Numbered from the stretch's first letter, positions 4,314 to 61,393 are shown. The stretch: DNA of 64,000 nucleotides from a virus (IMGVR_UViG_3300046786_000748:40994-104993); one strand, 5' to 3'. A program made the numbers and translations. Notes: generated by a model from the letters alone, not told the origin.

Positions 4314-5192
4314 TTAAACTCTTGGTGTAAAATTAACAGGGTCATAAATAGCTGTCATTTCTTTAATAAACGGTTTCATTACTTCATCTTTTAATGCTTC
4401 CTGAAAACAGTCTTCCCAAGATTTTACTTTTGGATTTCCAATCTCGTTTAATTCAGGATTGTTATGAATTTCCCTAGCTTTTGAAGCCCATTTGGAAGCA
4501 GCCTGTGTTCTCCACTTGTCTTTATCACCACTCTTTTTGTTTCTAAAAGTCAATTCAAAAGATAATTGTTTACCATTCTCAAATATAGCAGAAATTGATT
4601 GACTTCCTTCATGTACAAACCACCCATCTCCCTGTCTAAAACTTTCATTAATTGGTGCTGTTTCCTGAGTTTCCCTAGACATCCCCTTCCAATCAGAATG
4701 GTCTACACCCCAGTTTTTAACATAAGGTTTCATTCTTTCACTACTTAATGCTTCGACAAAACATTCTTTCCAAGATTTTCTTTTGAAATAAGGATCATTT
4801 GGATCTGTTGGACGAATTCTTGAGTTGTGTAGTCTATGAATCTTTTGAGTTTCAATCATCCACCTTCTAACCGCCTTTTTACCCCACTCTTGTATCTTTC
4901 TAAACTCCGGTCTGTAAGGACCAATAGAATTACCAACCAATTCTCCAAGTTCTTGTGGATATTGAACTTCAAACCAAATTCTTGCTTGTTCTCGGTGATA
5001 TCCCTCAGGACCTATGTAAACACAAGCACCTGTAGTTCCACTTTCCCAATCATTTGCTCCTTGATAAGCAGACCAACCATTCCCCTGTTCAAACATATCA
5101 AAATTTTCAGGAACACGAAATGGTTTGGCGTCTTTAGACGACACAAACCCAGGAACATAGAGTTCTTCTAAAAGGTGTTTTAAGTGAATCAT
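4314..5192 (-). CDS. Hypothetical two-repeat protein with MIxLKxLLxE leader and capsid-like C-terminal peptide
   Basis: N-terminus MIHLKHLLEE; two homologous halves (QGNGW..KSWKECFVEAL..MKPYVK and QGDGW..KSWEDCFQEAL..MKPFIK); ends YDPVNFTPRV. Confidence 0.8.
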   Translation of the reverse strand: MIHLKHLLEELYVPGFVSSKDAKPFRVPENFDMFEQGNGWSAYQGANDWESGTTGACVYIGPEGYHREQARIWFEVQYPQELGELVGNSIGPYRPEFRKIQEWGKKAVRRWMIETQKIHRLHNSRIRPTDPNDPYFKRKSWKECFVEALSSERMKPYVKNWGVDHSDWKGMSRETQETAPINESFRQGDGWFVHEGSQSISAIFENGKQLSFELTFRNKKSGDKDKWRTQAASKWASKAREIHNNPELNEIGNPKVKSWEDCFQEALKDEVMKPFIKEMTAIYDPVNFTPRV

Positions 5193-5193
5193 A

Positions 5194-5997
5194 TCAAATT
5201 ATAAATATCGGATTCTTATTACAAAACTCGTCTAATGCTTTGAATAATTCAACATTATTAGCCCACTCCTTAAGTGGTTTCTGTTCATCTTCCGGATTTT
5301 CATCCGAAACAACAGGTTCTTCTTCTGGCTCTTGTGGAGTTTGCATCGGATCATCAACAGGTTTTGTAGCTACTGTAGGTTCTAGTTCTGGCTCAGGAGT
5401 TTGAGTTGGATCAATCGGTTTTTCCAATTCTGGCTCAGGTTCTTCTGGTGGTAATTTTTCCTTGGGAGGAGTTGTTGGAACAGCCACAGGAGTTTGATTG
5501 GGTGGTTGTGTTGGGTCGGGAGAAGGAACAGGTTCGCCTTCAATATTAGTTCTTAAATACTCTTTTAAAGCAATAAGATGTTTACAAAGACCAGGACCAC
5601 GGTTAATAGAAGATGGATAGTTCAATCCTTTGTTCAAACTACCAGGACCGTTTTCACCTGCGTCTTGTTGTTTATTAGCATAACTAAATCTAAACCTATA
5701 ATCAGGACAACTGCAATCAACTGAACAAGGAACTTTCATTGCGTTATCGCCAGGATTCATTTCTTCTTTGTAAAAATAAATAAACCCTTGGTGTCTCAAT
5801 CCCGTAGTATTTTCGTCTCTAGGAGTTTTATAAGAAAATTTCCAAGCCTCTCTGTCGTTTATAGATTTAGCTACAAGAGATTTTGCTGGGATTCTATTCG
5901 CTCTGTCTTTTCTAGCAGAATCAGAAGCACGCATGAGATCTTCATAAGACATTTTCTCAACAAGCATTTCTGAAATTAATGAACGAAGTTTAATCAT
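5194..5997 (-). CDS. SWIM-type zinc-finger protein with Pro/Glu-rich tail
   Basis: CSC-PDY...GLCKHLIAL (CxC..CxH) motif; leader MIKLRSLISE. Confidence 0.7.
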   Translation of the reverse strand: MIKLRSLISEMLVEKMSYEDLMRASDSARKDRANRIPAKSLVAKSINDREAWKFSYKTPRDENTTGLRHQGFIYFYKEEMNPGDNAMKVPCSVDCSCPDYRFRFSYANKQQDAGENGPGSLNKGLNYPSSINRGPGLCKHLIALKEYLRTNIEGEPVPSPDPTQPPNQTPVAVPTTPPKEKLPPEEPEPELEKPIDPTQTPEPELEPTVATKPVDDPMQTPQEPEEEPVVSDENPEDEQKPLKEWANNVELFKALDEFCNKNPIFII

Positions 5998-5998
5998 A

Positions 5999-6556
5999 TT
6001 AGTTGAATCCCAATCTCATAACCATCGTTGTTAAAATTGGACATTGAAATTTGTTTTTATCATAATACATCCATTCAATAGTACCTTCACTATCAAACTT
6101 AGAACCATCTCCTGTTTTTTTAGAAGGTTCTTTATCACCAACATCAACTGCGTATAAATAATAAATAGTATCTGTTGATTTAGTACCTCTACAAGTTCCC
6201 AATGATTTCAAATCTTTCTCTTTTACTTCATATCCACTTTCTTCTTTAATTTCTTTTACAGCAGTTTCTTCAGGAGACATGCCTTTTTCACAACCACCTG
6301 TCAAAGCAGATAAGTTCTTTTCTTTCCCCCAAGCAGGAGTAACTTCTTTTCTAACCCCATATTCCCACGCATCCCTACCTTTTCTTCTATACAATAAAAC
6401 CCCTACTATTTTACCCTGACAACGTTCTTCGTGGAGATAAAAATAACCATCTTCGTCTTTAACAAGTTTAATTTTTTTAATGGAAATCCACTCGTTTTCA
6501 TAAACGGTTTCTTCTTTTTTATTTCCTTCACAGAGAAGATGTTTTAACTTAATCAT
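5999..6556 (-). CDS. Nudix hydrolase
   Basis: Nudix box GGCEKGMSPEETAVKEIKEESGY; leader MIKLKHLLCE. Confidence 0.85.
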   Translation of the reverse strand: MIKLKHLLCEGNKKEETVYENEWISIKKIKLVKDEDGYFYLHEERCQGKIVGVLLYRRKGRDAWEYGVRKEVTPAWGKEKNLSALTGGCEKGMSPEETAVKEIKEESGYEVKEKDLKSLGTCRGTKSTDTIYYLYAVDVGDKEPSKKTGDGSKFDSEGTIEWMYYDKNKFQCPILTTMVMRLGFN

Positions 6557-6572
6557 AAATCAAATATAAATA

Positions 6573-7340
6573 TTACGATATTAACTCGTTCTTAAGTTTT
6601 CTTTTATGATACTTTACAGCACTTATACTGATTTTATATTTTGTTGAAAGTTGAATAATTGTATGTTGGTCGGATAAAATATCTTTAATTAAGTCCGATT
6701 TAATTTTCTTTAAAATTTGTTTATTGAGTTTTATTTTCTGTTTGTTTTCTTCTGACATTGGACCCAAAACCATTCCGGACCTTCGGTTTGGATTACTGTA
6801 GTTCATTGTTCTATTTTTTAACATAATTCGCCGATCATTAAACTTTTGTTGACCCACTTCTTTTCCATATTTGTTTGTAAACCACTCCATAGAGAACCTA
6901 CCCTTCGCTTTTTCTTTTTGTAGTTGTTTGGATTCCTCTGTGTGGTTTCTGCCATACATAGGATTGTTTTCACCTAATGAAATAGTCCTCATTTTTTCAA
7001 TAAACACATCTCTATTTGGATTATATGTTATATTATCACCACCGTTGGCTGTCGGACATATGTTATATCCGATATCTCTCATGTAAGGTTTAAACAAATC
7101 CAGATAATGTTGTTCTCTATCCAAGAGAATAATTTTTTCCGAAAGAGTTTCTTCAACAATTTCAAACAGGAATTTATCGTTGCCATAAAAATCCCAGGCG
7201 TGTTGAAGTTTTGGGTTTATATGATATCCACCATTTAGATATTGTTTGTGTTCTTCCCACCTATAATCTATATCTTTAGCAGAACCGATATAAAATTTTC
7301 CGTTAACAGTATTAGTTATTTTGTAAATTCCACTTTTCAT
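6573..7340 (-). mobile_element. Free-standing GIY-YIG (Seg-like) homing endonuclease gene
   Basis: GIYKITN...FYIGSA, RW..H, EQ..LD, GYN; NUMOD3-like NPMYGRNHTEESK; C-terminal HTH; directly downstream of the capsid gene. Confidence 0.9.
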
Positions 7341-7359
7341 ATGTCTATAAATATCATGA

Positions 7360-7494: not shown

Positions 7495-9222
7495 TTATAC
7501 TTGATTTAAATCGCCTACCAAAATGCGCCCGTAAAATTCTGGGCGGACTATCTTCTTCGCATATCTTGTCATTACACCACGTCTTGGCGTGAAGTTCACT
7601 GGATCGTAGACTAGAGGAGTCTGAACGAGTGGGATATATGGAGCATAGACAGCACCAGTTTCGAGGAAGTTATTTCCACGGAAACCAACAAGAATTACGT
7701 TGTCGGTCATATATGGGTTCTTGTAAACCTGGAATCTTGAAGCAAAGCTTCCGACTCTGGTTACGCCCATTGCGAACTTGGCTTGGTCACCATCGGTATT
7801 TACTGCCCATCCTGGGATGGATTCAAGGATGGTTGCGACATCTGGCGAGCAAACGAGGAAGTTAGCACCACCACGGAGGGTCAACTGGTGAATCTTGTTA
7901 CTAACCTTCTGAATCTTGATACCCAACGTGCGGTACCATGTATCCTTGGTGTAATATCCACCTGTTCCTGCAACGGATTGATCAACGACTGCGTATGTTC
8001 CATCACCGTTGGAGAGGATTTCACGATTGAGCTTAGCAGACCATCTTTCGGTGGTGATTGCTGGAGCATTCGTGATTAACATGTCGAGGATTTCAAGGTC
8101 GATTTCCATTGAAACGTACTCAGACAACAGAGCAGTAAGTTCTGCTTCTGCGTCAATGCTGTGATAAGCATTCAAGTCTTGAGCAAGTTCTGGAGTCCAG
8201 ACTGCTTTCAACTTACGAGTCTTGGCGACGATAGGTTCGCTCTTAAGTTCCAAATTAACTTCTGGGATACCGATATCGTTATTTAATCCAAATGTAGCAT
8301 CTGGAGAACCACGATCTTCGAAGTCACCACGGTTGGCATCTTTAGGCTGTACTGAGTAAATAACAGTCCAAGTTCCACCAGCGGCATTTGCACCACCACC
8401 ACCCATACCTGGAGCACCACCCAATGTTGCGGAAGCAGTTACGAGGAAGACAACTTCGGTTCCGAATTGTTTGGTTAATGCTGGGTAATACGATGCGGAT
8501 GTATTAGTTGGAGTAAACAACGATGCGGATTGTGCTGGTCCATAAAGAACAAAGCTACGAACTCCATTTGCGTCGAATACGTTACCAGCTGCTGTGGTCT
8601 GTGAATAGAGGTTAGTTGTAGCAACCTTCCAAATCTTACCAGCGGCCAGTGAAGATGACAAACTTACATCCCAGTTGATATCTTCCATCGAAGCAGAAGA
8701 AACTAAGACTGTAGCGGTTGTGTTTTTATCATTTACAGTATATCCGAAACGGCCGGAACCATAAAGACCACCGGTTGCTGAATCAGTCGAACCGAGTTTC
8801 GTACCCGTTCCACCGTAAAGAGATTGCGAGGTTGTTCCACCACCCTGACCGTCCTTGTAGAACTGACCTTGGTTTGTTCCATACTTGAAATCAAGATAGA
8901 ATACGAGACCAGAAGGAAGATTCATTGGCTGAACCGAGACGAATTCCTTAGCAGCGATTTCTGCGAATACACGACGAACGAGTGGAAGAGCGACGCCTGC
9001 CCATTGTTCGGAGTTTGAAGATACACCAGTCTGACTGGCTTCTTCGATAAGCTGCTTGGCTTGGTTTTCAAGCAATACAGCCATGTTGGATTTTTCCATG
9101 TCATTCTTCAAACCTTCAAGCAAGCCTGTCTTATCCCACTTGGAGACGAGACCACGGGTTTCTTGCATCAAACGAGCCTGAGGATTCATGGTGTTTGTCA
9201 ATAGTGACTTTACATCATTCAT
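7495..9222 (-). CDS. gp23: Major capsid protein, T4 gp23-like
   Basis: LLENQ, PLVRRVF..VSVQPMNLPSGLVFYL, KTRKLKAVWTPELAQDLNAYHSIDAEAELT..EIDLEI, YAPYIPL..FTPRRGVMTRY; codon usage suggestive of high expression. Confidence 0.97.
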   Translation of the reverse strand: MNDVKSLLTNTMNPQARLMQETRGLVSKWDKTGLLEGLKNDMEKSNMAVLLENQAKQLIEEASQTGVSSNSEQWAGVALPLVRRVFAEIAAKEFVSVQPMNLPSGLVFYLDFKYGTNQGQFYKDGQGGGTTSQSLYGGTGTKLGSTDSATGGLYGSGRFGYTVNDKNTTATVLVSSASMEDINWDVSLSSSLAAGKIWKVATTNLYSQTTAAGNVFDANGVRSFVLYGPAQSASLFTPTNTSASYYPALTKQFGTEVVFLVTASATLGGAPGMGGGGANAAGGTWTVIYSVQPKDANRGDFEDRGSPDATFGLNNDIGIPEVNLELKSEPIVAKTRKLKAVWTPELAQDLNAYHSIDAEAELTALLSEYVSMEIDLEILDMLITNAPAITTERWSAKLNREILSNGDGTYAVVDQSVAGTGGYYTKDTWYRTLGIKIQKVSNKIHQLTLRGGANFLVCSPDVATILESIPGWAVNTDGDQAKFAMGVTRVGSFASRFQVYKNPYMTDNVILVGFRGNNFLETGAVYAPYIPLVQTPLVYDPVNFTPRRGVMTRYAKKIVRPEFYGRILVGDLNQV

Positions 9223-9262: not shown

Positions 9263-10552
9263 TTACTTTTTCGCAGGAATACCAGCGAGCTTCTGGAATC
9301 TCTGTGCCATCTGATTAACACCTTCGGTGATAACCTCTTTAGATGGTTTCGTTGACGCTACAGGCTTGGATGCTGCACCCTCGGTGATCGTAGTAACTTG
9401 ATTGATTGGGTTCTGCGAGAGAGCCTTTCTCTTCAAGTTTCCACCAAGATTTAATGATTCACACCAATTTGCGTATGTCATCTTAACTTCACGAACGCAT
9501 TTTGTAAGATCAAATGCTTCCACGACCTTTGTTTTTTGGTCACGGTTCATACCAAACTCCTTAAACAGCTTGTTCGTGTAAAGCAGTTTTGCGTTTAGTA
9601 GATTGATCTCATTAAGTTGTTTCTGTAAATACTCTACAGTCTTGTAGGCTTCATTACGTTCAGAAGTTACTTCATTAAGTTGAGTTTGAAGAGCAACGGT
9701 TTCATCACACTTCTCTTCCTTATCGTCTTCTTCCTTCTCTTCTTCCTTCTCTTCTTTAGCCTCTTCATTGAGACTTGCGAGTAATTCATTCAAATCAATT
9801 TCTTCCTCTTCCATAGGAGCTGGTTCCTCAGTTGGAGGAGCACCGGCGTCTGGTCCACCCATTGGAGGAACTTCGCCGCCTGGAGGAGGAGGCGTTCCAC
9901 CAACAGGAGCTTCAACCTTAGAAATTACAACAGTGTCACCACTCTTGATTTCTTGAGATTCTTCGCCTGGGGTTTCTTCGCCTGGAACTTCATCGTCACC
10001 TGGAACTGGAGGTCCGCCGGCGTCACCACCTGGAACTGGAGGCATGTCATCCATAGGAGCAGCACCAGCTTCGGCTTCAAGCTCACGAATAATTTCATCC
10101 AAATCTTCGTTTGTTACAGTTTCTTCAACTGATTCCTCTTCAACAGCACCTTCTGTTGCGTTTTCTTTAACTCCTTTGGGAGTTCCGTCAAATGCGTTAC
10201 CTTTGTTATCCTTAGACCAACCTTTGGTTCCATCTCCACCGTCTTTAGCAGAAGGAATTGTGTTTGGGGTGATGTTTTTATCGGTAGGTTTTGGACCTGC
10301 GTTGTCTTTAGACCAACTCTTAGTGCCATCGTTCTTAGATGGTTTTGCATCCTTTGGTTCTACAGTTTCAGCAACAGGGGCATCGACTGATGGTTGGGAT
10401 TCGGTTGCAGAATCTTCTCTCAATTTATCTGCAAATACAGCCGAAAAACGACTGTTAAAAGCTTCCTCAAGGGATGCTTTAGCATTTGCTAATGCTGTGG
10501 CTCTAACGGCCTTTGCATCGGCAATAGCTTCTTTTAATAGATTACTATTCAT
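9263..10552 (-). CDS. Prohead scaffold/core protein
   Basis: Directly upstream of the capsid gene; acidic, Pro/Gly-rich disorder plus coiled coil (LNEINLLNAKLLY); many L/V-x-E sites; ends FQKLAGI. Confidence 0.8.
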   Translation of the reverse strand: MNSNLLKEAIADAKAVRATALANAKASLEEAFNSRFSAVFADKLREDSATESQPSVDAPVAETVEPKDAKPSKNDGTKSWSKDNAGPKPTDKNITPNTIPSAKDGGDGTKGWSKDNKGNAFDGTPKGVKENATEGAVEEESVEETVTNEDLDEIIRELEAEAGAAPMDDMPPVPGGDAGGPPVPGDDEVPGEETPGEESQEIKSGDTVVISKVEAPVGGTPPPPGGEVPPMGGPDAGAPPTEEPAPMEEEEIDLNELLASLNEEAKEEKEEEKEEDDKEEKCDETVALQTQLNEVTSERNEAYKTVEYLQKQLNEINLLNAKLLYTNKLFKEFGMNRDQKTKVVEAFDLTKCVREVKMTYANWCESLNLGGNLKRKALSQNPINQVTTITEGAASKPVASTKPSKEVITEGVNQMAQRFQKLAGIPAKK

Positions 10553-10728
10553 AATTACAAGTTTCCTACTTTTGTTTCTGGGGTTATTAGAAGAACCACA
10601 ATTTAAGTTAATTTATTTGTGGCGGCGAAGAAGTCGCAGCATTTTTACAAATATAAATATAGAAGAAAAAATCAAAATTATAAAAAACTTCAAGATATTT
10701 ATTGATAACCGTATCTAAATGTAAACAT

Positions 10729-11436
10729 ATGCCCGCCAAAAGTGAAAAACAACGTAGATTTTTCTACTTGGTAAAAGCCCTTCAAAAAGGAAAGGTTTCA
10801 CCAAAAAGAGTTGGTAGTAAAGTTTCCAAAGCAGCATCATCTATGTCATCTAAAGATGTTGATGATTTTACTCATGGAAAAAACCTACCTAAGAAAAAAC
10901 TAGAAGAAATTATAGGAGTGTTAAAAAACTTATCGGCTAACGATGAAAATCCAGCCTTTCAAGATCCTGTAACCGATTTAAGAACAGGAGTTGCGAATCC
11001 AGATTTAACTTTGGAAAACCAATTTGATGATCCAAATCAAACCGAACAAAACCCTATAGCTAAAACTTTTAATCAACAAGGTAACTTTGAAGAATATATT
11101 GGAAAGTTTTCTGGACTAGAACTAAAACCGAAAGAAATAGAATCCATTACTAATTATACTAATGCTAAGCCTACTAAGATGGATAAATTCTTAGTTAGAT
11201 ATGAATCAACAGACGAGTTTAATAACAACACTATAACCGTAGTTAAAAAATTAAGAGAAGGCACAGATTTAGTATTTACTATTTTTCAATCATCTACACA
11301 ACAAGGTGGAACGGAACCTCAAGGTGAAGAACCAACAGGACAAAACGAAATTATAGTAACTAAATCTCGTTCGTTTGTTAATGAAATTGAAGGTGGTAAA
11401 ATTTTAGCAGACTTATTACAGAAATTGGACGTATGA
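10729..11436 (+). CDS. Hypothetical protein with DUF3008-like N-terminus
   Basis: MPAKSEKQRRF...SMSSKDVDDF resembles the DUF3008 pattern. Start moved from 10702 to ATG 10729; TATTTATT at 10696. Confidence 0.6.
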   Translation: MPAKSEKQRRFFYLVKALQKGKVSPKRVGSKVSKAASSMSSKDVDDFTHGKNLPKKKLEEIIGVLKNLSANDENPAFQDPVTDLRTGVANPDLTLENQFDDPNQTEQNPIAKTFNQQGNFEEYIGKFSGLELKPKEIESITNYTNAKPTKMDKFLVRYESTDEFNNNTITVVKKLREGTDLVFTIFQSSTQQGGTEPQGEEPTGQNEIIVTKSRSFVNEIEGGKILADLLQKLDV

Positions 11437-11801
11437 TAAAATTAAAACAACTACTAAAAGAAGTTGACGAGGATAAAAACTCAAACATTGCTTCTGTTGA
11501 AGATGAACGGGAATGGAAAATGCCCGATGTCGATCATATGCTTTCTATGAAATTTGAAAGAGAAGGAGATTCGGTTTTTATTCTAGCAAATCCAGCGATG
11601 AAGGTTTATAAGATAAAAAACGGACCTTTTGTTTTGGAAGAACCTATAGAAAATCACGAACACAATTTTCAAAAAGGAATTGTTTCACCTATAAAACCAC
11701 ACGGATTAGCAGCATTTAACCAAAGTAAACAAATCAAAAAGTATGAGTTTCCAACATTTATCAAACTCATAAGATTTTTCGATAACTATAAACAAGATTA
11801 A
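11433..11801 (+). CDS. Hypothetical protein with MIKLKQLLKE leader
   Basis: ATGA overlap with upstream gene; shared leader motif. Confidence 0.75.
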   Translation: MIKLKQLLKEVDEDKNSNIASVEDEREWKMPDVDHMLSMKFEREGDSVFILANPAMKVYKIKNGPFVLEEPIENHEHNFQKGIVSPIKPHGLAAFNQSKQIKKYEFPTFIKLIRFFDNYKQD

Positions 11802-11827
11802 GGATTTTGAACAATATTTATAAACGT

Positions 11828-12814
11828 ATGAAACTCAAAAAGATTGTAGAAAACATGGACAAAATGCCTTCGACATTGAAGGGATTTAATGAGTCGCCAA
11901 AACTTTCTCCTGAACAAAAGAGAAAATTAATGGAAATGGTAGGTCAATATAACACCCTCGGACAGAAATTAAGAATGGAAGGTGCTTTGATTGAAACTGC
12001 CACAGCTTTAGCTGAAATAGCCGAACTAGCAGAAACCTATGCTTGTAATGAAGCATCCGATTGGTTCGCAACTGAAGTGGTTAAAACCGATTTTAAACGA
12101 GCTAAGGGAATTACAGAAACATTTCAAAAACTCGCCCGTGAATGTCATGGTAAAGTTCAACAGTTGAATGCTCTTTATGAAGACATGGGACACATTCTTG
12201 GGCGTTATTATGAAATCGCCGACCCAATGGCCGAAGTCTGTCCAAATCCAACAAATGTTAAGAGTCAACGTGGTTTGCCAAATGCACAACCTCAGACAAT
12301 CATGCAGGAAGTTAAACCTAATGATAAAAATATCAAATCTCAAAGACAACTCCCATCCGGCGGTTCTGCTCCAACGCAAGTAAAAGAAGTTGCTGTTGAC
12401 GATAAACACGCAAACATCAAAGGACAACGTGAACTTCCTCACACCAACGGCCCAGCAACGCCTCAAGTAAAAGAAGTTGCTGTTGATGACAAACACGCTA
12501 ATGTTAAAGGTCAACGAGATTTGCCTTCTGGCGGACCTACTCCTTATCATCCACCAAAAGATCCACAAGATACCGGTTCAGTTAAAGAAGTAACTGTAAA
12601 TGATTCCAATCTTCAATCTCAACGTGAACTTCCACAAGGCGGTCCAGAAGGATATACACCACCCAAGTTAGAAAATCCAAGCCCAGAAGTAAATCCTGCT
12701 GGTGCTGGTGAAATGAATGTTAAAGGTGAAAGAGATGTTCCACAAGGAGGACCATCTAAAGATGTCGCTTATGAGTCTTTTAGATTCAAAGACATTCTAA
12801 AATCAATTAAGTAA
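11828..12814 (+). CDS. Helical protein with six C-terminal peptide repeats, putative internal head protein
   Basis: ATG 11828 follows TATTTATA (11815-11822); leader MKLKKIVE; repeats N(I/V)K(G/S)QRxLP separated by xxE-V. Confidence 0.75.
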   Translation: MKLKKIVENMDKMPSTLKGFNESPKLSPEQKRKLMEMVGQYNTLGQKLRMEGALIETATALAEIAELAETYACNEASDWFATEVVKTDFKRAKGITETFQKLARECHGKVQQLNALYEDMGHILGRYYEIADPMAEVCPNPTNVKSQRGLPNAQPQTIMQEVKPNDKNIKSQRQLPSGGSAPTQVKEVAVDDKHANIKGQRELPHTNGPATPQVKEVAVDDKHANVKGQRDLPSGGPTPYHPPKDPQDTGSVKEVTVNDSNLQSQRELPQGGPEGYTPPKLENPSPEVNPAGAGEMNVKGERDVPQGGPSKDVAYESFRFKDILKSIK

Positions 12815-16931: not shown

Positions 16932-17549
16932 TTAAACGATTTCACTGAAAATGTCTTGAATGATACTTTCTGCTGTAACCCATTTTCCGTTAATTGGGTT
17001 TTGTACAACTTGTTTTACACCTTCTGTTAAAGCACCAGATGGAAACATAAATGCTCCTCTTGTTGAAGGATTGGAAACAAAATCAAAAGCAATCAATTCA
17101 AAATCGTCTTGAACCTGATCAACACCTTCGGAAATTTTCTTAATAGTTCCAAGACCACGACTGGAAATTCCAAGACGAATGTTGGAACGGAAAAGTTCTT
17201 TCAAGATGTTACCGCTTGGAGTTCCAAGAACTTCAACGGTTCCCATAAGATCTTTACCTTCCCAATGCATTTCAATTATGTTATGGGAAACGTTTTTGAG
17301 GTTAACTACTTGAGATTCTGGATGATCAAGTTCACCAAGAGCACGTCTTTCTTTTATAAAACCCTCTGTATATTTTTGGGCCTCACGCATTAGAGTTTCA
17401 TATGGATAACTACGTCCATTTTGGTTTGTGGCTTCTGCACGCTGGAGAATGCCCTTTACAACGAATGGACCTTTACCGGATAAGGCTTCGGTAAGAGTTT
17501 GTCTCAAAGGTTCAAACGTTATTACGTCAATTAAGAGTTTCTTTTCCAT
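16932..17549 (-). CDS. gp21: Prohead protease, T4 gp21-like
   Basis: N.NGR.Y, ALGELDHP, VSHNI, TPSG.I, LGISSRGLG, FDFVSNPST. Confidence 0.93.
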   Translation of the reverse strand: MEKKLLIDVITFEPLRQTLTEALSGKGPFVVKGILQRAEATNQNGRSYPYETLMREAQKYTEGFIKERRALGELDHPESQVVNLKNVSHNIIEMHWEGKDLMGTVEVLGTPSGNILKELFRSNIRLGISSRGLGTIKKISEGVDQVQDDFELIAFDFVSNPSTRGAFMFPSGALTEGVKQVVQNPINGKWVTAESIIQDIFSEIV

Positions 17550-17550: not shown

Positions 17551-18021
17551 TTATCTTCCTAAAGCTGGTTGTTTACCTGCTCCAGTAGGTTGTTGACCTT
17601 GAGGGTTTACAGGCGGTTGTGAAGGTTGTTGAACCGTTGGTTCCGGTTGTTGTGGAGTTTCTGCTGCTCCTGGTTCTGGAGCAATACCACCACCAACAAC
17701 TTTAATTTTGTAACCGGCTGTTAAAAAATGTTCTTTGTTATTTTCGTTTTTCAATACAACAACCCAATCATCATAAAAGTCGTTTATATTGACGCCGGTA
17801 ACTCTACTAATTGTATAATCTTTGACAGGTTGTTTGTATCCTCTTGAGGCATTGACAACCACAGATTTGTTTAAAATTTTAGAAGCAAGAGCTTTTTCAA
17901 ACTTTGACTTAGCTTGTTCAGTTGTAGAGTTTATCGTGGATTTAAACGCATCAAAATCTCTGGTCCAGTCATAAAACTGTCCCTGATCAACCTGTTCAAG
18001 AATGTGGGATAAAAGCATCAT
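17551..18021 (-). CDS. Hypothetical protein in head module
   Basis: Leader MMLLSHILE; Gln/Pro-rich tail. Confidence 0.7.
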   Translation of the reverse strand: MMLLSHILEQVDQGQFYDWTRDFDAFKSTINSTTEQAKSKFEKALASKILNKSVVVNASRGYKQPVKDYTISRVTGVNINDFYDDWVVVLKNENNKEHFLTAGYKIKVVGGGIAPEPGAAETPQQPEPTVQQPSQPPVNPQGQQPTGAGKQPALGR

Positions 18022-18728
18022 TAGGTTACCTTTCCACCAACACTTTTGGCAGCAATAGATTTCATTTTTTTCCTATCAGGATCAGGATCTACCCAATTTT
18101 TACCGTAAAATCCTTGAGCAGCAGATGTTCCTGTCATCTCGTCTATATCACCCTTCCACTTCTTATCACGGTTTCTATCATACTTTGGTTTAGGACCTTC
18201 TTTTCCCTGACCGTGTATTCTCGAAACGGGATTTACATCACCCCAAGATTTTCTAACTTTTGGTGTAGAAGGAGCTTTTATTGTAATACTTCCTTCTTTG
18301 ATATTATGCATTTTTTTAAAAGTTTCGTAAGAATAAGTTACATCACCAGCAGTTGAATAAACAGCAACATCAATCTTTCCATTTGGATACCTGGCATTCA
18401 CAAATTCATATTTAGTCCCACCCATTATAAAAGGCTCTTCGCCTGTACGTCTACTATGGTATTCAACATATTGCGGATCTTCTTCGACTTCATCCAATCC
18501 TCCTAATCCCATTTTATTAAGTTGATCGGTTCCAGCTTTTAAATCATCCATCTGTTTGTTATAATCAACTTTTGGTGGTTTTCCTGGTTTTGAACTTGGA
18601 GTAGGTGTTGTAAACCCATCGGGTTTATCACCCCAATTGCCATGTTTATCTAACTGTTGGACACCATTTTCAATTAGGACTTCTTTAATACATTCCCTAA
18701 TGAGTTTTTTAAATTCTTTCTTATCCAT
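18021..18728 (-). CDS. Hypothetical protein in head module
   Basis: Leader MDKKEFKKLIRECIKEVLIE; several short modules separated by xxE sites. Confidence 0.7.
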   Translation of the reverse strand: MDKKEFKKLIRECIKEVLIENGVQQLDKHGNWGDKPDGFTTPTPSSKPGKPPKVDYNKQMDDLKAGTDQLNKMGLGGLDEVEEDPQYVEYHSRRTGEEPFIMGGTKYEFVNARYPNGKIDVAVYSTAGDVTYSYETFKKMHNIKEGSITIKAPSTPKVRKSWGDVNPVSRIHGQGKEGPKPKYDRNRDKKWKGDIDEMTGTSAAQGFYGKNWVDPDPDRKKMKSIAAKSVGGKVT

Positions 18729-19620
18729 TTGGAGCCTCTTCCTTCTTCAATTGTTTCGTAACTTCTTTTAAAAGTTCATAGGAAAGCAAAAGTGACATAA
18801 TTTGGTTATCTTTAACTATACTGTTTGTAGGTCTAACTTTATCAAGTTGTTTGGTCACTTCGTTAATTTTGATCTTTATTACTTCTGAATCCAAAATTTT
18901 ACCTGAAACCTCAACAAGCTTTTGTTTTACTTCATCTATCTTGCCACAAACATATTCACCAAGAGAATTGGTATTACTTACATTATTGATGTATTCACGT
19001 AATATAGATTTTTGATTATCATCCAAATTGGAATATTTCTTGTTAAGACCTTCGACCAAAAGTTTATAAGAAAGCAATCTGATATCTTCTGACTGTTGTT
19101 GATAAAATTTTATCAACTCTTCGGATTCAGTGATGGATCTTTTATTTGAATCGGCTATGTTTTCAATAATACAAGTTTTTGCTTGAAATACTTCTTTTAC
19201 GTCAAACTTAGCATCTTTAGAGGAAGCATCTTCAAAAATTTTGTAAGTTGAAGCTAAAACTTTATAATTCTTAATACTGGCTTTTAGAAACTGATCTATA
19301 GGATATAACTCTTTCATTTCCTTGATTAAGTTATACTTTTCTTCCGCCAACTTGTTATTGTGAAGTTTCTTTCTCTGTTCTACAATTACAGATAAAAACC
19401 GTTCTGCGTGAACTTCATCTTTAACTTTTTCGTTAAGCAAAAAATTATAAAGACGCCACTCCTTACCCAGTTCAGTATTTTCCTTGAAATACTTGAAGAG
19501 CAAGGTTTTAGCTTCGGAGTTTTCTTTCCCAGCTAGGATGTCGGCAGTAATTTGTTTAGTCAAGAGCTCAAACAAAATGCCTGTGTTTCTAAATTTACTA
19601 TGACGCAATTTTTTTTGCAT
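18721..19620 (-). CDS. Helical head-module protein (prohead core-associated)
   Basis: HSKFRNTGILFELL N-terminus; between portal and protease; start probably 19620. Confidence 0.6.
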   Translation of the reverse strand: MQKKLRHSKFRNTGILFELLTKQITADILAGKENSEAKTLLFKYFKENTELGKEWRLYNFLLNEKVKDEVHAERFLSVIVEQRKKLHNNKLAEEKYNLIKEMKELYPIDQFLKASIKNYKVLASTYKIFEDASSKDAKFDVKEVFQAKTCIIENIADSNKRSITESEELIKFYQQQSEDIRLLSYKLLVEGLNKKYSNLDDNQKSILREYINNVSNTNSLGEYVCGKIDEVKQKLVEVSGKILDSEVIKIKINEVTKQLDKVRPTNSIVKDNQIMSLLLSYELLKEVTKQLKKEEAPNG

Positions 19621-19685
19621 ATACTTACTCTTCAACTTAATTTATAAATATTTATAGACTTTCCCATAATATAGAAATATTTACC

Positions 19686-22600
19686 TTATTCTAATATGTT
19701 GGCTTCGTCCAAAATTGATTTATCTTTGGATTCTGTCATTAATTCTTTCTTGACATCTTTACCGGATGACATGAAATTATCTAAACTATTAAAAACACTC
19801 TTCATTTCCAACGCCAGTGGACTTTCCTTACTTACTTTTGGAGTGAGAGTTCGATCTGTCTTGGATGAATCACGGGTTCTTTCCAAATCTCCTAAAGGAT
19901 CTTCGCCGAACGGATAGTCAGACGCTTTCTTTTCGCCTGCTTGTGAAGGCCTTACATAATCATGAGCCGACTCTCCTTGTTTTTCAGAAACTACTACAGA
20001 TTCTTTAACTGGACCCTCTTCTCCAGGACCACCTTCCGGTCCACCGCCAGGTTCACCCTCCGGACCACCTTCTTCGTCTCCTAAATCAGGTCCTGATCCG
20101 CCTCCGCCACCTGGACCGGACAATCCACCACCATCACCATCACCATCACCACCATCTGATTGTGGATTAATCTTCTTGAATGGTTTAGCTGGGTCGTTAC
20201 CATCTTCGGTAATCTGTTTCAATCTCCAAAGTTGCTTACAATCTTCCACAACATCTTGTTCATTTTTTTGAATGTCATCATCCGACATACGAAAAATCTT
20301 CTTGAAAACAAACTTTCTTGAAAAGAATGGGCCGGAACTATCACTCATCTCCGACATTGTTTTAGCATTTTCCATCTTAGCAGCCCAAATTTCCATCTTT
20401 TCTTTCTCAAACACAGTGGATGGATTAGTTAAACCAATAGTAAAATCTACGATAGAAGCGTCTCTATAACCTTGAGCATATAAATGAACTTGAGCAATCT
20501 TATTAAGTTCAGAAATAACCATCTTTTGAATACGAGAAATTGTTCTAGCAAATCTGACATCTTCTGCTGCTAAAGTAGCTTTTCCAGAGGTATTTTCATC
20601 AAAACCAATGAAAGGTTTTGGAACCTTGAAAGCTGCCATCATTTTGTTTTTCACATACTCCAAGTCATCAATTCCAGTAAATTCCATGCCAGGAAGAGTA
20701 TCAATTGACGTTCCTGAATCGGCTCCACGGGTAGGAAGGAAAATATCTTCCACCATGTTCATGAGGTTAAACCGAAGATTGTAGTCACCAGTTCTCTCGT
20801 CAATATAAGGAACTTTCTTCATCTTAGAGATGATTTGTTCCATAAAATTATCAACTTCGTTTGGTGGAATGTTGCCGATATCAATCTTGAAAATTCTCTT
20901 TTCAGGGGCTCTCATAATACGATGAATTAACATTGCATCTTCAAGTAATGAAAGCTGCTTCCAAACACGACGGCCGGGCTCAATCATTGACCGACCATAA
21001 GGTAGAAAGTTTGAATCCGCAAGCAATCGAAAGTGAGCTACTTGAAAAGATTCAAGAATTTCCGCTTGTGATGTATCGACGGGTCTAATTTGAAATTTAA
21101 CGTAGTTTTTGTTAAGAGGGTCTGAATTTTCAATACGTTCTACGTTATAAGCAGAAATAGGTTCTACAAGGTAAACTCCGTATTCAGGACTTATGTTAAG
21201 TTTGAGATAGAAATCTCCATACTTACACATGTTTCTAATCCAAGACCAAAGGTTGAATTCGACATTTAAAATATCGTAGAATAGGTTATGAAGAATATCT
21301 TTGATGTTGTTATTTTTGGAATCAATAGTCAACATTTCACCCATTTCATTCTCAGTAAGACATTCATCAGCATAAATGTCCAATACAGAAGATATGATCG
21401 GATCCATATCCATTGTATTGTGGACGAAACAACTATCAGTTGCAAAGTTTTGATATTTTTCTACAGTAACATCATAAACTTCTATTTCTCCAACATATTC
21501 GATGGACACTATTTTATGATTTAATGTAGAAACAATTTCTTGTTTAAAAGTATCCCAATCATACTCACCGTCTATCAGCCTGTTACGAACTGTAGAATAA
21601 TCGCATCCAACATATTTACTTAATCCAAATATATCTAATTTTCCGTAAGTTTTGTAATATTCAAACGCATAATCACTTATAATATCAAAACTAATATCGT
21701 TTCTTGCATTTGGATTTCTAAATCTAGATTGATTTCTCTTTTTTAACGATGTTTTTAACGATTCTGAACGAAGTTGATTTGATTTTTTAGAATGTGATTT
21801 TCCATAAAACGGATTGTTTTTTCCAGCACGTTTGCCATTCCACTTATTAAACTTTCTGTTTTTATAACCATCAGATGATTGAACTTTTTCAATAGTTTTT
21901 TGTTTATTTGCAGGAGACCATATAACATCATTATTTAAATGCATATGAAATGCTCTATGGTCCGAATCCGTCATAATTTGAAGATTTGACGGTAGATTGT
22001 TAGTTTTATCAAAGTTTCTATGATGAACTACTTCATTATCATTCAATGGTCGTTCAAACTGTTCTGCAACAATAACATGTTCAGATTGCCATCCTTTTGA
22101 AAAGTTATAAATAGATCTATATCCATTATTATAGAAATCTTTTTGATAGAACGGCATTACAGATTCACCGACAGATAAATTCTCAAGTTTTTTATATTCT
22201 CCATTTCGCATTAAAAACGGATGTCCGGCACTGCCTATAACATATTGTCCATTATCAAAAATAACTTTCCACGATTTTCTAGCACCACCTTCTTTTTTAC
22301 GAGGATGATAGGCCTTTCCAAGTTTTATAGAATCGGTTTCGTGGTCATATGAAAATACTAAAAATCGTTCTTGTGGATTGTCTTTATATTTCTCCGCAAG
22401 TTCTGCTATTGTTGGAGTAGTCCCATCAGGCAGTGGTATTATTGTATCTGGTCCTACGCAATCGTAGTCACGGAAAAGGTCTAATCTGGCTGCTTGATAA
22501 GATAAAGCGAAATCACGGGTATATGCGTTTACGTTTGATGAACGAACTCGGTTCCATCTATCTCTAAACGAATTTCGGTCAGTCGCATACTGAATTTCAT

Positions 22601-22748
22601 CGCTATCTTTTATCTTGAGTTTCTTCCCACCAACGTTTCTTACTATTACATCAGTTGAAAACAATCTCTTTAAACGAGCATATAGTGATTGTTGTTTTAC
22701 ATCAATCACGTCGTCTACAGATATCCTTGTTAAATTGTTAGTGGCCAT
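19686..22748 (-). CDS. gp20: Portal protein, T4 gp20-like, with intein
   Basis: LEDAMLIHRIMRAPEKRIFKIDIGN.P, EDIFLPTRG...TSIDTLPG, AFKVPK, EDVRFARTISRIQ; 348-aa intein inserted. Confidence 0.95.
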   Translation of the reverse strand: MATNNLTRISVDDVIDVKQQSLYARLKRLFSTDVIVRNVGGKKLKIKDSDEIQYATDRNSFRDRWNRVRSSNVNAYTRDFALSYQAARLDLFRDYDCVGPDTIIPLPDGTTPTIAELAEKYKDNPQERFLVFSYDHETDSIKLGKAYHPRKKEGGARKSWKVIFDNGQYVIGSAGHPFLMRNGEYKKLENLSVGESVMPFYQKDFYNNGYRSIYNFSKGWQSEHVIVAEQFERPLNDNEVVHHRNFDKTNNLPSNLQIMTDSDHRAFHMHLNNDVIWSPANKQKTIEKVQSSDGYKNRKFNKWNGKRAGKNNPFYGKSHSKKSNQLRSESLKTSLKKRNQSRFRNPNARNDISFDIISDYAFEYYKTYGKLDIFGLSKYVGCDYSTVRNRLIDGEYDWDTFKQEIVSTLNHKIVSIEYVGEIEVYDVTVEKYQNFATDSCFVHNTMDMDPIISSVLDIYADECLTENEMGEMLTIDSKNNNIKDILHNLFYDILNVEFNLWSWIRNMCKYGDFYLKLNISPEYGVYLVEPISAYNVERIENSDPLNKNYVKFQIRPVDTSQAEILESFQVAHFRLLADSNFLPYGRSMIEPGRRVWKQLSLLEDAMLIHRIMRAPEKRIFKIDIGNIPPNEVDNFMEQIISKMKKVPYIDERTGDYNLRFNLMNMVEDIFLPTRGADSGTSIDTLPGMEFTGIDDLEYVKNKMMAAFKVPKPFIGFDENTSGKATLAAEDVRFARTISRIQKMVISELNKIAQVHLYAQGYRDASIVDFTIGLTNPSTVFEKEKMEIWAAKMENAKTMSEMSDSSGPFFSRKFVFKKIFRMSDDDIQKNEQDVVEDCKQLWRLKQITEDGNDPAKPFKKINPQSDGGDGDGDGGGLSGPGGGGGSGPDLGDEEGGPEGEPGGGPEGGPGEEGPVKESVVVSEKQGESAHDYVRPSQAGEKKASDYPFGEDPLGDLERTRDSSKTDRTLTPKVSKESPLALEMKSVFNSLDNFMSSGKDVKKELMTESKDKSILDEANILE
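21417..22460 (-). mobile_element. Intein with HNH homing endonuclease in portal
   Basis: DYD|CVGPDT start, GSAGHPF block B, VHHRNFDKTNN..NL HNH, NPFYGKSHS NUMOD3, VYDVTV..YQNF....FVHN|T end. Confidence 0.93.
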
Positions 22749-48382: not shown

Positions 48383-48946
48383 TTACCAACTTTGTATTGC
48401 TCCCGAGAAGTTTCCACTGTGACCTCTTTTAGATTGATCTAAAATAGCTTTAAAATTCTTATTAAAAAGTTTAGATAAATCCGGACCTACTGACGGTTGA
48501 ATTTCTTCAACTACTTCTTCGGTTTGAGGTTGATCAATAGAAATGTTAGATTCGTTTAAAATTTCTTTCATTTCACCTAGAAACTCTTTAGAAACTCCTA
48601 CTTTAGAAAATTGTGGTAACGGAACTCCTTCATCTATTCCAGTCTGCGGAAGGCCAGGGGTAGTTTCATTCAGAATCGCATTTAAAATTGGGTCTTTAGC
48701 ATACTTTTTAACAACTTTTTTCTGTGGTTGTATAGGGGCTGGTGTTTTTCTCGGAACGGGTACAGCATCTGGATCAGAAGCTACATCCTCTCTGACTAAT
48801 GTTTGTTGAACAGGTGCAGAAGGTCTTTGACCCAACATTTCGAACAATAACTTTGGTAATTGTTTAGATACTTGACGTTGAACTTCACGTTCAACTTCTT
48901 CAAGTACGAGTTGTCTAATTACAGCTTTGAATTCGCTTGCTTTCAT
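48383..48946 (-). CDS. Hypothetical late protein
   Basis: Leader MKASEFKAVIRQLVLEEVE; ILNAILNET; TATTTATA at 48951-48958. Confidence 0.7.
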   Translation of the reverse strand: MKASEFKAVIRQLVLEEVEREVQRQVSKQLPKLLFEMLGQRPSAPVQQTLVREDVASDPDAVPVPRKTPAPIQPQKKVVKKYAKDPILNAILNETTPGLPQTGIDEGVPLPQFSKVGVSKEFLGEMKEILNESNISIDQPQTEEVVEEIQPSVGPDLSKLFNKNFKAILDQSKRGHSGNFSGAIQSW

Positions 48947-59246: not shown

Positions 59247-59249
59247 TAA

Positions 59250-59525
59250 TCAATTTTCACCGAACTTGTCTTCAAATAAACTACTCAAAGCATATATAGC
59301 CTCTGTAGCGTCATCACCTTCTGCTGTAATTTTTAACTTGGTTCCCTTTCCTGCTCCCAAAAGCATGATACCTAAAATGCTTTTGCCATCAACAACTTCT
59401 CCATCTTCTGTAGCAATGGAAATTTGAGATTGAAACTTATTGGCTTTCTTAACTAAAGATGATGAAGGACGAGCATGTAAACCCAATTCGTTCTCAACTA
59501 TAAACTCTTGTGTAACTGTATTCAT
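59250..59525 (-). CDS. ptsH: HPr phosphocarrier protein
   Basis: NELGLHARP (His15) and VDGKSILGIMLLGAGKG (Ser46), AEGDDA.EA; 91 aa; TATTTATA at 59536-59543. Confidence 0.92.
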   Translation of the reverse strand: MNTVTQEFIVENELGLHARPSSSLVKKANKFQSQISIATEDGEVVDGKSILGIMLLGAGKGTKLKITAEGDDATEAIYALSSLFEDKFGEN

Positions 59526-59596
59526 AATCCGATGGTATAAATATTGTAAACCTTCTGTTTTATTCTATATTTATTAACAGGAAAAGGTAAAAATAT

Positions 59597-61393
59597 ATGA
59601 TAAAGTTGTTGCCGCTTATTTTAGAAAATGTCGTTGACCAAGAAGCCGATCTTGGCAAAGGACATCCATTAAGTGAAAAGGGATATTTATTTTTGAAGGG
59701 GAAAATTGACGAGATGAATAAAAAGGCGGCAAAGTGGGGTGTGCCAACAATGACCTTGAAAATTCTCAAGGAAGAGTTCGTGAAGAAAAAGATTTGGGTT
59801 AATATCACAACCGGTCAACAAACCACTCCTGACGACCCAGAAAAAGAAATAAAAGAAGTAAACGTCAAACAGTATCAAGTTGTTATTGAAGGGGAACCTC
59901 CCAGCGTCGAGGGATACGAATTCATCGCTAAAGTCGAACATACGCATGATGGAAACATTCTTAATTATGCTCCTAAAGCGTCTGATAAAACTATGCCTAC
60001 TGAATACAGAACTGCTAGACAGGCATGCGATGTTTGTAAAACGAACCGTGATAGAAACAACACATTCATCCTCAAACTTGAAAAAGATGATCCTCAGAGA
60101 TTTCCAGAAAAGAGAGCAGGCGATTTTGTTATGGTTGGGAGCGGTTGTTTAAAGAGATTTCTTCCTAATATCTCGGCGACTGCGTTAATGGAATATGCGG
60201 AAATGATGGAAACATTGAGAAACTCAGTTGATCAAGCAGGGGAAATGGATGATAGTTTCGAAGGAGGATTTGGAAAGAGTAGTGGAAATTGGACGGGAAG
60301 AGAAGAATTAGGAAGGTGGTTAGCTGCAATTTATTTACATACCGGAAAGTATTTATCCAAGAAAAAAGCAGACGAATTTCAAACTATATCTACAGTTGAT
60401 GATGCTTTCAACGCAATGAATTCTAGAGCAGACCAACACGAACATTCTGTCCACAAACGAATGAGAGAAGATCAACCATTTATAGAAAAAGTCGATAAGT
60501 TAACAGCAGATTTTATAGAATGGTCTAAAACTAAAGACTTTGATACGTTAATTAATCAAAAACCAGAGTTTGCTGATTTCTTTCATAACTTGAAAATCAT
60601 TGCTAAACAAGAAATGTTCAAATCTAAAAATAGCGGATTCTTTTCAGCGTTATTTCAGTTATATTTGAGAGATCAAGGGGAATTGGAGAAGAAGGCAGCA
60701 ATGAAGAAAGCTACTGCTGACTTTACATATTTTGGGGAGGTTGGTGGGAAGATTAAAGTTAAAGTGAGAGTAAACAAAGTTAAAGAATACGAAAGTCAAT
60801 ATGGTCAAGGATTAATTATCAACATGGAAGGTGAACAAACCGCTACTGATGATTCTGGTCAACCGATTGTTAAAAAAGGTAACTTAATCTACTTTACCAG
60901 CAACTTTGAACTTGAAGAAGGTGAAGAAGCAGAAATAGAAGCAACGGTCAAAGGACACCAACAGAATAAATATACTCAAATCCCAGAAACTCAAATTACT
61001 AGAGCAAAGATTGTCAACTTCATTACTCATCCAGAAAAGAATGCTGGTAAAACAAAAGTAAAAGACTTAAATGGGACTGTAAAAGTACACCATGTTAGAG
61101 AAAACATGAATTGGAATACTGGTCAAAAAGAATATTCCATACAGTTCAATTATGATATTAATGTTCACCCTGAAATGAGGGTTATTGGTTCAAACTGGGG
61201 AGTTGGTTTTGTTTATACTATTCCAGATGAATCTACTTATCAATCATTAAAACAATACGAAAATAAATTGGTTAATGCTAAGTGGAGTTTGGGAAGAGTA
61301 ACCAATATTGATAAATTAAAAACAAGTACTGGACATCCTGTAACTAAGTTCCAAGTAACTCAAGTATTAGGTGATGTTCCAACTAACCAATAA
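59597..61393 (+). CDS. Zinc-ribbon and OB-fold protein with MIKLLPLILE leader
   Basis: CDVC..NRDRN...VGSGCL; C-terminal YFGEVG.K...ESQYG...ATVKGH...TQITRAK OB-like region; TATTTATT at 59568-59575. Confidence 0.7.
   Translation: MIKLLPLILENVVDQEADLGKGHPLSEKGYLFLKGKIDEMNKKAAKWGVPTMTLKILKEEFVKKKIWVNITTGQQTTPDDPEKEIKEVNVKQYQVVIEGEPPSVEGYEFIAKVEHTHDGNILNYAPKASDKTMPTEYRTARQACDVCKTNRDRNNTFILKLEKDDPQRFPEKRAGDFVMVGSGCLKRFLPNISATALMEYAEMMETLRNSVDQAGEMDDSFEGGFGKSSGNWTGREELGRWLAAIYLHTGKYLSKKKADEFQTISTVDDAFNAMNSRADQHEHSVHKRMREDQPFIEKVDKLTADFIEWSKTKDFDTLINQKPEFADFFHNLKIIAKQEMFKSKNSGFFSALFQLYLRDQGELEKKAAMKKATADFTYFGEVGGKIKVKVRVNKVKEYESQYGQGLIINMEGEQTATDDSGQPIVKKGNLIYFTSNFELEEGEEAEIEATVKGHQQNKYTQIPETQITRAKIVNFITHPEKNAGKTKVKDLNGTVKVHHVRENMNWNTGQKEYSIQFNYDINVHPEMRVIGSNWGVGFVYTIPDESTYQSLKQYENKLVNAKWSLGRVTNIDKLKTSTGHPVTKFQVTQVLGDVPTNQ

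Follow-up and report, generated by a model that had tools for sequence, protein, structure and literature searches.

What does it mean when proteins with nothing else in common begin with the same ten residues? The question is raised by a virus contig of 104,993 bp (IMGVR_UViG_3300046786_000748; ~30% complete according to CheckV), of which bases 40994-104993, a stretch of 64,000 nucleotides (nt) called the window here, were analyzed; coordinates are those of the window. Several of its genes encode an N-terminal leader, or tag, of the form MIKLKxLLxE, which an earlier note on this DNA had taken for the equivalent of the capsid-targeting sequence (CTS) of phage T4. The phage is a T4-like myovirus, judging from its gp23-type capsid, gp20-type portal, and gp21-type protease genes. 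By capsid protein, the nearest named phages are Flavobacterium phage immuto (54%) and Microcystis phage Mel-JY01 (52%), Rhodothermus phage RM378 being more distant, and hundreds of closer uncultured relatives are found in IMG/VR on contigs of 160 to 370 kb. Capsid targeting has belonged to textbook knowledge since 1996, and a further case would be correspondingly less of a surprise; the CTS found on internal proteins in T4 and its removal by gp21 were reportedly described in that year by Mullaney and Black. The leader of the present lineage is probably a T4-style capsid-targeting propeptide, which would dock proteins onto the prohead core, be removed by the S77-family protease after Glu 8-10, and mark these proteins for packaging and for ejection with the DNA.

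Translation of the window recovers all nine N-termini that the earlier note had cited, comprising seven short leaders (starts at 5192, 5997, 6556, 11433, 11828, 18021, and 59597; peptides in Table 1) and two long forms, MDKKEFKKLIRECIKEVLIE at 18728 and MKASEFKAVIRQLVLEE at 48946. Beyond the window, the other 41 kb of the contig contributes two short leaders, MIKFADLLLE and MMLKQILTE, and another long form, the third, MNKQEFRNFIKEVVKHVIRE. A profile scan was run with a hidden Markov model (HMM) trained solely on the tags of relatives, with 32,885 windows from the same proteome as decoys. The leaders at 6556, 5997, 11433, 59597, and 5192 score 15.8 to 19.4 bits, with a decoy maximum of 12.8 bits, and these five tags are certain. 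The leaders of 11828 and 17551..18021 and the two short ones outside the window score 6 to 10 bits, with decoy rates of 2e-4 to 2e-3, and are probably four weaker variants. With a loose regular expression, 8 of 90 N-termini match, against a background of 1.6 to 2.6% (P ~1e-4 to 1e-3). At the DNA level, a ten-codon degenerate pattern occurs six times in this contig, nine times in a complete 369-kb relative, and at four places in Mel-JY01 and a single one in immuto; with reversed patterns as controls there are 0 to 1 matches, and phage T4, which has a similar GC content, gives none. The codons used for Leu at position 4 among 55 distinct tags are TTA, TTG, CTT, CTA, and CTC, those for Lys are AAA and AAG, and this mixture of Leu (TTR/CTN) and Lys codons indicates that selection acts on the peptide and not on the DNA. 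An artifact of AT-rich codons, which the earlier note had named among the outcomes that would overturn its reading, is rejected by the mixed codons, the zero count in T4, and the reversed-pattern controls. A signal peptide was also considered and rejected by eye, the leader being charged, ten residues long, and without a hydrophobic core. The enzyme genes at 12864-16877 do not carry the leader. This block, on the minus strand, encodes a denV-like pyrimidine-dimer glycosylase, a dCMP deaminase, an FkbM methyltransferase, a NADAR domain protein, and an RlaP-type RNA-repair nucleotidyltransferase.

The distribution of the tag was followed in two samples of relatives, namely, 80 loci fetched via the capsid protein and a set of loci fetched via one codon version of the tag DNA alone. 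In the first sample, the tag heads ~70 to 90 open reading frames (ORFs) in ~40 BLAST-unrelated clusters. In the second, at least 120 IMG/VR stretches match, and in 117 cases the match is the start of a complete ORF; these ORFs form 61 unrelated clusters, so that, as read from these genes, the tag is portable, standing on members of at least 60 unrelated families. The proteins that carry it in relatives include Acb1-like 2H phosphoesterases (above Pfam thresholds), GNAT acetyltransferases, a lysozyme, an ATP-grasp protein, an AAA_33/Zeta-type (PNK/Zeta-like) kinase, an MPTase-PolyVal domain, and, with canonical tags, another CCA-adding enzyme and another Nudix hydrolase; peptidoglycan-binding and TseH-like hydrolase domains also occur, in a tally that leaves aside whether both lie in the same protein. 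Closer homologs of the Nudix hydrolase of the window begin with MIKLKxLLxE, MLLKSLLSE, or MILLKKIL, and distant members start ~15 residues later, at the conserved body, without a tag. Homologs of the tagged 598-residue protein in Aeromonas phage Aeh1 and Vibrio phages nt-1 and D503 align from about residue 33 (33 to 36 by tblastn) and have unrelated, untagged N-termini. In the AlphaFold2 model of the Nudix hydrolase (mean predicted local distance difference test score [pLDDT] of 88), residues 1 to 8 score below 50 and are the sole unanchored part. Because the Nudix family is mixed, the Aeh1, nt-1, and D503 homologs are untagged, and residues 1 to 8 of the model are unanchored, the tag is best understood as an add-on to existing families, as these comparisons indicate for the Nudix hydrolase and the 598-residue protein. 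Two cultured phages bear the tag, Mel-JY01 on four genes (starts at 60276, 60923, 62056, and 62733 of PP395634.1) and immuto on one (start at 24977 of MW353176.1). The fourth tagged start of Mel-JY01, MIKLKQLLNE (PP395634.1, 62733 onward), lies in a stretch without an annotated coding sequence in GenBank. In immuto (MW353176.1, 117587-118887), two adjacent and otherwise different proteins share the leader M-x-(D)-NF-x-L-[KR]-x-FL-x-E/NKLT (a slash marks the putative cut here and below), which suggests that a tag of this kind exists in different versions among related phages.

Linkage to head genes is the next feature. Of 60 tagged genes in relatives, 53 are located downstream of the capsid gene, half of them at a distance of at most 2 kb; the untagged genes show an even spread. 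Of 80 loci found by the DNA pattern, 33 hold head genes of the clade (terminase in 22, the post-portal gene in 21, protease in 19, portal in 13, and capsid in 8). In the window, the Nudix gene is the first of a cargo island (4314-6556) downstream of the capsid gene. The statement of the earlier note that the tagged genes lie in units headed by TATTTAT(A/T) also stands: every tagged gene falls in such a unit, and the genes starting at 5997 and 11433 are co-oriented downstream members, tagged with no copy of the motif to themselves. There are 35 copies of the motif, where 18.4 would be expected, approximately half of the copies being directly upstream of a start codon, and in relatives' loci it lies at most 40 nt upstream of 47% of tagged versus 18% of untagged genes. 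The spacing from motif to start is 3 to 7 nt, with a peak at 4 nt (80 cases), in the window (sites such as 6565-6572, 7346-7353, and 11815-11822) and the 80 loci of relatives. Tagged genes share these units with portal, core, and baseplate genes, and the motif also precedes genes for the portal, the baseplate, and a homing endonuclease, which lack the tag. No Shine-Dalgarno sequence is visible by eye before the start codons headed by the motif, and the late mRNAs may be leaderless or nearly so. The form TATTTATA is the reverse complement of TATAAATA of T4, read here on the sense strand.

The presumed leader-removing enzyme is the product of 16932..17549, which is similar to T4 gp21 (1e-14 in an alignment with structure 5JBL; 2.3e-20 by phmmer). 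The His of GELDHP and the Ser of GISSRGLG, which sit where the aligned 5JBL chain has Ala, are taken as its catalytic pair. All of the tags end in [LI]-x-E at residues 8 to 10, the canonical end being L-[LI]-x-E. In T4, maturation takes 65 residues off gp23, 10 off gp24, and 9 off gp21 (PMC9958956), and the propeptides read from NC_000866, MAKINELLRE (gp24), MNEPQLLIE (gp21), and ...FLTE65/A (gp23), end in L-R-E, L-I-E, and L-T-E; T4 ipII and ipIII begin with MKTYQEFIAE in the same record. The gp23 site E65/A66 aligns with QLIEE/A in the capsid protein of the window, which places the predicted maturation cut after Glu61 (codon 9040-9042), and L[IL]xE/[AS] is present at the aligned site in 76 of 78 capsid proteins of the clade. 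In sequence form, which is what was compared, the end of the tag has the same four-residue pattern as this predicted capsid maturation site.

From the tag, its portability, the selection on its amino acids, the protease, the form of the cleavage motif, and the linkage to head genes, all established from sequence, we infer docking, cleavage, packaging, and injection as follows. Tagged genes would be expressed together with the head genes, and the exposed N-terminal decapeptide would dock each protein onto the scaffolding core during prohead assembly. The gp21-type protease would then cut after Glu 8-10 (L-[LI]-x-E/), freeing the mature protein inside the capsid, and this protein would be ejected along with the DNA in the following infection. 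The phage would thus carry a changeable set of enzymes acting at the very start of infection, which on this contig would comprise an ADP-ribose-pyrophosphatase-like Nudix hydrolase, a SWIM-motif protein, a CCA-adding enzyme, and several proteins with no assigned function. By analogy with known or proposed injected proteins, the cargo types found (Acb1-like, MPTase-PolyVal, a weak ART-PolyVal, Nudix, and CCA-adding) are of the expected kind.

Several points weigh against this reading. Of the features of the T4 system that can be read from sequence, the leader, the form of the cleavage motif, the S77 protease, and the linkage to head genes are found, but the peptide itself has no similarity to the T4 CTS; on the tag profile, ipI scores -1.8 bits, and ipIII has no row in the result. 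The docking partner of the tag is a presumed one. The likeness between the tag and the capsid N-terminus is weak, at 2 to 6 bits, and the notion that the tag copies that N-terminus, considered separately, holds only weakly at these scores. TATTTATA is only a putative late promoter, and no gp55 homolog was found by phmmer on this partial contig. All four ART-PolyVal matches in relatives' cargo are below the Pfam threshold, and a CCA-adding enzyme or a Nudix hydrolase would also serve as an ordinary late enzyme of the cytoplasm. The literature on Mel-JY01 and immuto yields no virion proteomics or N-terminal data.

Other explanations of the shared leader differ in how much of this evidence they can accommodate. 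A shared start could be a feature of the nucleic acid, either an AT-rich translation start of near-leaderless late mRNAs or a recombination cassette by which genes pass from phage to phage, with no role for the peptide. TATTTAT[AT] does lie 3 to 7 nt ahead of many start codons, and the tag regions appear as 31-nt repeats of ~77% identity; however, Leu mixes TTR with CTN codons and Lys mixes AAA with AAG, the genes at 5997 and 11433 are tagged without the motif, the portal, homing-endonuclease, and baseplate genes bear the motif without the tag, and T4, with the same GC content, has zero matches, which makes this explanation highly improbable. No more probable is that the leader sends proteins to a chaperonin or assembly factor, as a folding or handling signal that they would have in common with the capsid protein. 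Snyder and Tarkowski (2005) reportedly found that the N-terminus of T4 gp23 directs proteins to GroEL, and the clade capsid N-termini MSDIKSLLTE and MNDVKSLLTN share the register [IV]K-x-LL-x-[EN] with the tag, but the capsid likeness amounts to just 2 to 6 bits, small simple folds such as the 122-residue protein and the Nudix hydrolase should not need a chaperonin route, and neither the terminal Glu nor the clustering beside head genes would be explained.

Shared leaders on unrelated proteins are also a signature of sorting systems and of systems resembling those of ribosomally synthesized and posttranslationally modified peptides, and most of the ORFs on the contig are unannotated, so the leader might be recognized by some other partner, for example a modifying enzyme or a route for secretion or to the membrane. 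Such a partner is very unlikely: no maturase-type or radical-SAM (S-adenosylmethionine) gene was seen among the ORFs scanned, a signal peptide would be longer and less charged than this leader, the leader's end fits the protease motif and the capsid maturation site, and the head genes are the only consistent neighbors found. A further idea is that the leader is a propeptide removable by the protease, keeping enzymes inactive or marking them for processing and not serving as an address; capsid entry, if any, would then rest on other regions of the protein. As a cleavage-site form, the L-[LI]-x-E end fits this idea, and the capsid-like C-terminal peptide of cargo 3, described below, could be the real docking element. 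Cleavage alone would nevertheless leave the conserved M-I-K-L-K upstream of the cut motif unexplained, inhibition is improbable with a tag that is unanchored in the Nudix model, and the equivalent peptide of T4 is sufficient for targeting (PMC9958956); we regard this alternative as unlikely. Capsid targeting by the decapeptide is kept as the working explanation; the tagged genes and the head genes are listed in Table 1.

Table 1. Tagged genes, head-module genes, and late-type motifs of the window, with two tagged genes from the remainder of the contig
Feature	Position	Strand	Details
Late-type motif TATTTATA, heading the cargo island	6565..6572	-	
Equivalent TATTTAT[AT] motifs	5200-5207(-), 10696-10703(+), 11815-11822(+), 19643-19650(-), 48951-48958(-), 59568-59575(+)		
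Candidate cargo 1, Nudix hydrolase, 185 residues, MIKLKHLLCE	5999..6556	-	Tag HMM 19.4 bits
Candidate cargo 2, 267 residues, MIKLRSLISE	5194..5997	-	Tag HMM 19.2 bits; phrog_18980 4e-6; Pro/Glu-rich tail
Candidate cargo 3, 292 residues, MIHLKHLLEE, internal duplication	4314..5192	-	Tag HMM 15.8 bits; direct repeat
Candidate cargo 4, 122 residues, MIKLKQLLKE	11433..11801	+	Tag HMM 16.5 bits; start overlaps the end of gene 10726-11436
Candidate cargo 5, 598 residues, MIKLLPLILE	59597..61393	+	Tag HMM 15.8 bits; phrog_2319 4e-48
Weak-tag protein, 328 residues, MKLKKIVE	11828..12814	+	Tag HMM 9.9 bits, decoy rate 1.8e-4
Weak-tag protein, 156 residues, MMLLSHILE, gp67/gp68 position	17551..18021	-	Tag HMM 8.7 bits, decoy rate 5e-4
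Long-leader protein, 235 residues, MDKKEFKKLIRECIKEVLIE/N, between portal and protease	18021..18728	-	
Long-leader protein, 187 residues, MKASEFKAVIRQLVLEE, inside the baseplate block	48383..48946	-	TATTTATA at 48951-48958
Weak-tag 425-residue protein, MIKFADLLLE	Outside the window		One HEGRH motif
Weak-tag CCA-adding enzyme, MMLKQILTE	Outside the window		Catalytic domain starts at residue 33
gp23-type major capsid protein	7495..9222	-	PF07068 4e-77; N-terminus MNDVKSLLTN
Probable scaffold, gp22 position, presumed docking partner of the leader	9263..10552	-	Directly upstream of the capsid gene
gp21-type prohead serine protease (Peptidase S77), presumed leader-removing enzyme	16932..17549	-	PF03420 5.4e-26; phrog_207 1e-50
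Conserved post-portal protein	18721..19635	-	Orthologs in immuto and Mel-JY01
gp20-type portal with HNH intein	19686..22748	-	PF07230 5.5e-69; Intein_splicing, HNH_3
Large terminase	22791..24407	-	

Among the tagged proteins of the window, the Nudix hydrolase is the best defined. The label given to it in the earlier note was borne out by an above-threshold match to PF00293 (1.9e-8), with both the Nudix fold and the Nudix box present, and the best Foldseek matches of its model are ADP-ribose pyrophosphatases (E ~1e-9, template modeling scores of 0.6 to 0.76). Cargo 2 had been described as a SWIM-finger protein; the motif CSCPDY...CKHLIAL is visible, with a spacer of ~40 residues, and recurs as CSCPD[YF]...CKHL in two orthologs, but there is no Pfam SWIM match at E values up to 0.01. 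For the 598-residue protein, the proposed zinc-ribbon/OB-fold identity found no support in Pfam, PHROGs, the ESM Atlas, or tblastn, the ESM Atlas search returning only viral clusters without names. Pfam and PHROGs gave no function for 4314-5192, 11433-11801, 11828-12814, 17551-18021, 18021-18728, or 48383-48946, and megablast of the cargo region against named phages gave no match. The C-terminus of cargo 3, YDPVNFTPR, is identical to residues 539 to 547 of the capsid protein (4320-4346 versus 7582-7608). This capsid segment is almost invariant in the 78 identified capsid proteins of the clade, and two cargo 3 homologs retain a (V/N)(D/-)PVNF C-terminus, and the YDPVNFTPR end could be a second capsid-docking element.

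The weak tags are found on proteins of another character. In 11828..12814, which has TATTTATA at 11815-11822, 5 nt before its ATG, a helical head is followed by five or six units of ~29 to 36 residues (12236-12775); each unit comes after V-K-E or a similar Glu site, and two units are 83% identical in DNA. By analogy with the core proteins of T4, this protein may be of the core type and be chopped into peptides by the head protease. The protein encoded by 17551..18021, immediately upstream of the protease, has orthologs in relatives that start with MISLVKL[IL]TE. The long leaders, three or four in number, share the pattern M-x-K-x-E-F-K-x-x-I-R-...-V-L-I-E-N, and their mutual likeness is confined to the first 20 to 40 residues; that of 18021..18728, probably a prohead-core protein, with the others is restricted to residues 1 to 43. 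Since only a single additional case turned up when the loci of the 80 relatives were searched with a regular expression for such leaders, the long-leader class is weakly supported. T4 gp68, read from NC_000866, begins with ...HELVLEN.

The scaffold candidate has no family match in Pfam or PHROGs; its N-terminus, MNSNLLKE/AIADAK, is conserved with immuto (MSNKDLLKQAIAEAK) and resembles that of T4 gp22, MLKEQLIAE/A. Head-module proteins have the highest density of [LI]xE on the contig, with a peak of 4.9 per 100 residues in the post-portal protein against a median of 1.1. In phmmer searches against all contig ORFs, T4 gp55, gp22, gp68, ipIII, and inh gave nothing significant, and T4 gp24 matched the capsid protein alone, indicating that there is no separate vertex gene on this fragment. 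The portal intein carries an HNH/NUMOD3 homing endonuclease at residues ~104 to 444 of ORF 19686-22748(-), and a GIY-YIG homing endonuclease gene, 6573-7340(-), directly follows the capsid gene, the place held in T4 by segD after gene 23. Farther away, a phosphotransferase system phosphocarrier protein HPr is encoded at 59250-59525(-) (PF00381 8.4e-29; GLHARP histidine motif), with TATTTATA just upstream; it is an unusual auxiliary gene for a T4-like phage. A single ORF of 1,070 residues, 27365-30577(-), combines an Mre11-type metallophosphoesterase with a Rad50/SMC-type ATPase head, which are encoded by separate genes in T4 (gp47 and gp46).

The closest known system is the CTS/gp21 system of T4 (reviewed in PMC9958956, PMC5694885, and PMC3012670). 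There, too, a leader of ~10 residues with a hydrophobic-x-Glu end stands on unrelated proteins (IPI, IPII, IPIII, and Alt) and is removed by gp21, and the gp21-family protease, the gp23/gp20 head, and the placement of cargo genes in variable regions are common to both. Alt has ADP-ribosyltransferase activity and IPI* counteracts restriction (PMC9958956, PMC3012670), and enzymes expected to act on the host at entry are part of the cargo in T4 and of the candidate cargo in this lineage. The likeness, known here from the genes alone, has its limits. T4 has three internal proteins and Alt, whereas nine tagged genes (five canonical and four weaker) occur here in 105 kb and at least 60 families across relatives, and the cargo island lies directly downstream of the capsid gene, unlike in T4. 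The peptides MKTYQEFIAE and MIKLKxLLxE are unrelated in sequence, and because of this the tag is, as far as the comparison of peptides goes, a functional analog and not a homolog of the T4 CTS, using a homologous protease and head. The gp24 propeptide of T4, MAKINELLRE, matches the tag in length and in its LL-x-E end, yet it scores only 3.3 bits on the tag profile. T4 gp22 (MLKEQLIAE) and gp68 (..HELVLEN) resemble the scaffold MNSNLLKE of the window and the long leaders (..KEVLIE/N); gp24, gp22, gp21, and gp68 are structural or core proteins of the head and not exchangeable cargo.

In the giant phages SPN3US and phiKZ-like phages, a protease related to gp21 trims long propeptides from internal head proteins that are ejected (PMC5694885, PMC10052503). 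The conserved N-termini shared by paralogous cargo and the trimming by a T4-related protease are points of likeness with the system proposed here, but those propeptides have 80 to 130 residues and a different cleavage motif, whereas the tag described here is a decapeptide of T4 size. A further parallel is offered by the polyvalent proteins of phages and conjugative elements, for which Iyer et al. (2017) reportedly proposed delivery with the DNA. Their domains overlap with the cargo found here in MPTase-PolyVal, ART-PolyVal (weak here), and enzymes directed at nucleotides or RNA; polyvalent proteins, however, string many domains together in one giant polypeptide, whereas here separate small genes have tags of their own. 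No earlier description of the tag was found in the literature, including for the string MIKLK.

If the tag works as the CTS does in T4, the probable packaged and injected proteins of these phages could be listed from sequence alone. The clade concerned is a large group of mostly uncultured aquatic T4-like phages, including phages of Flavobacterium and Microcystis, and the two cultured phages that bear the tag make the idea directly testable; the tag is also a possible second handle for protein loading beside the T4 CTS. More tentatively, and as a possibility in which we place limited confidence, the decapeptide may be a readable address label throughout the lineage, listing the injected "first-strike" proteome of abundant aquatic T4-like phages: Acb1-like cyclic-nucleotide phosphodiesterases, Nudix hydrolases of the ADP-ribose-pyrophosphatase type, CCA-adding and kinase-type tRNA-repair enzymes, an MPTase-PolyVal domain, and cell-wall hydrolases. 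Anti-defense enzymes would then be preloaded in the virion instead of being made after entry, and the label would mimic the N-terminal segment by which the capsid protein docks on the scaffold. The cargo, with its signal-degrading phosphoesterases, Nudix hydrolases, and tRNA-repair enzymes, points to ready-made delivery, which, if true, would revise the current view of when counter-defense sets in.

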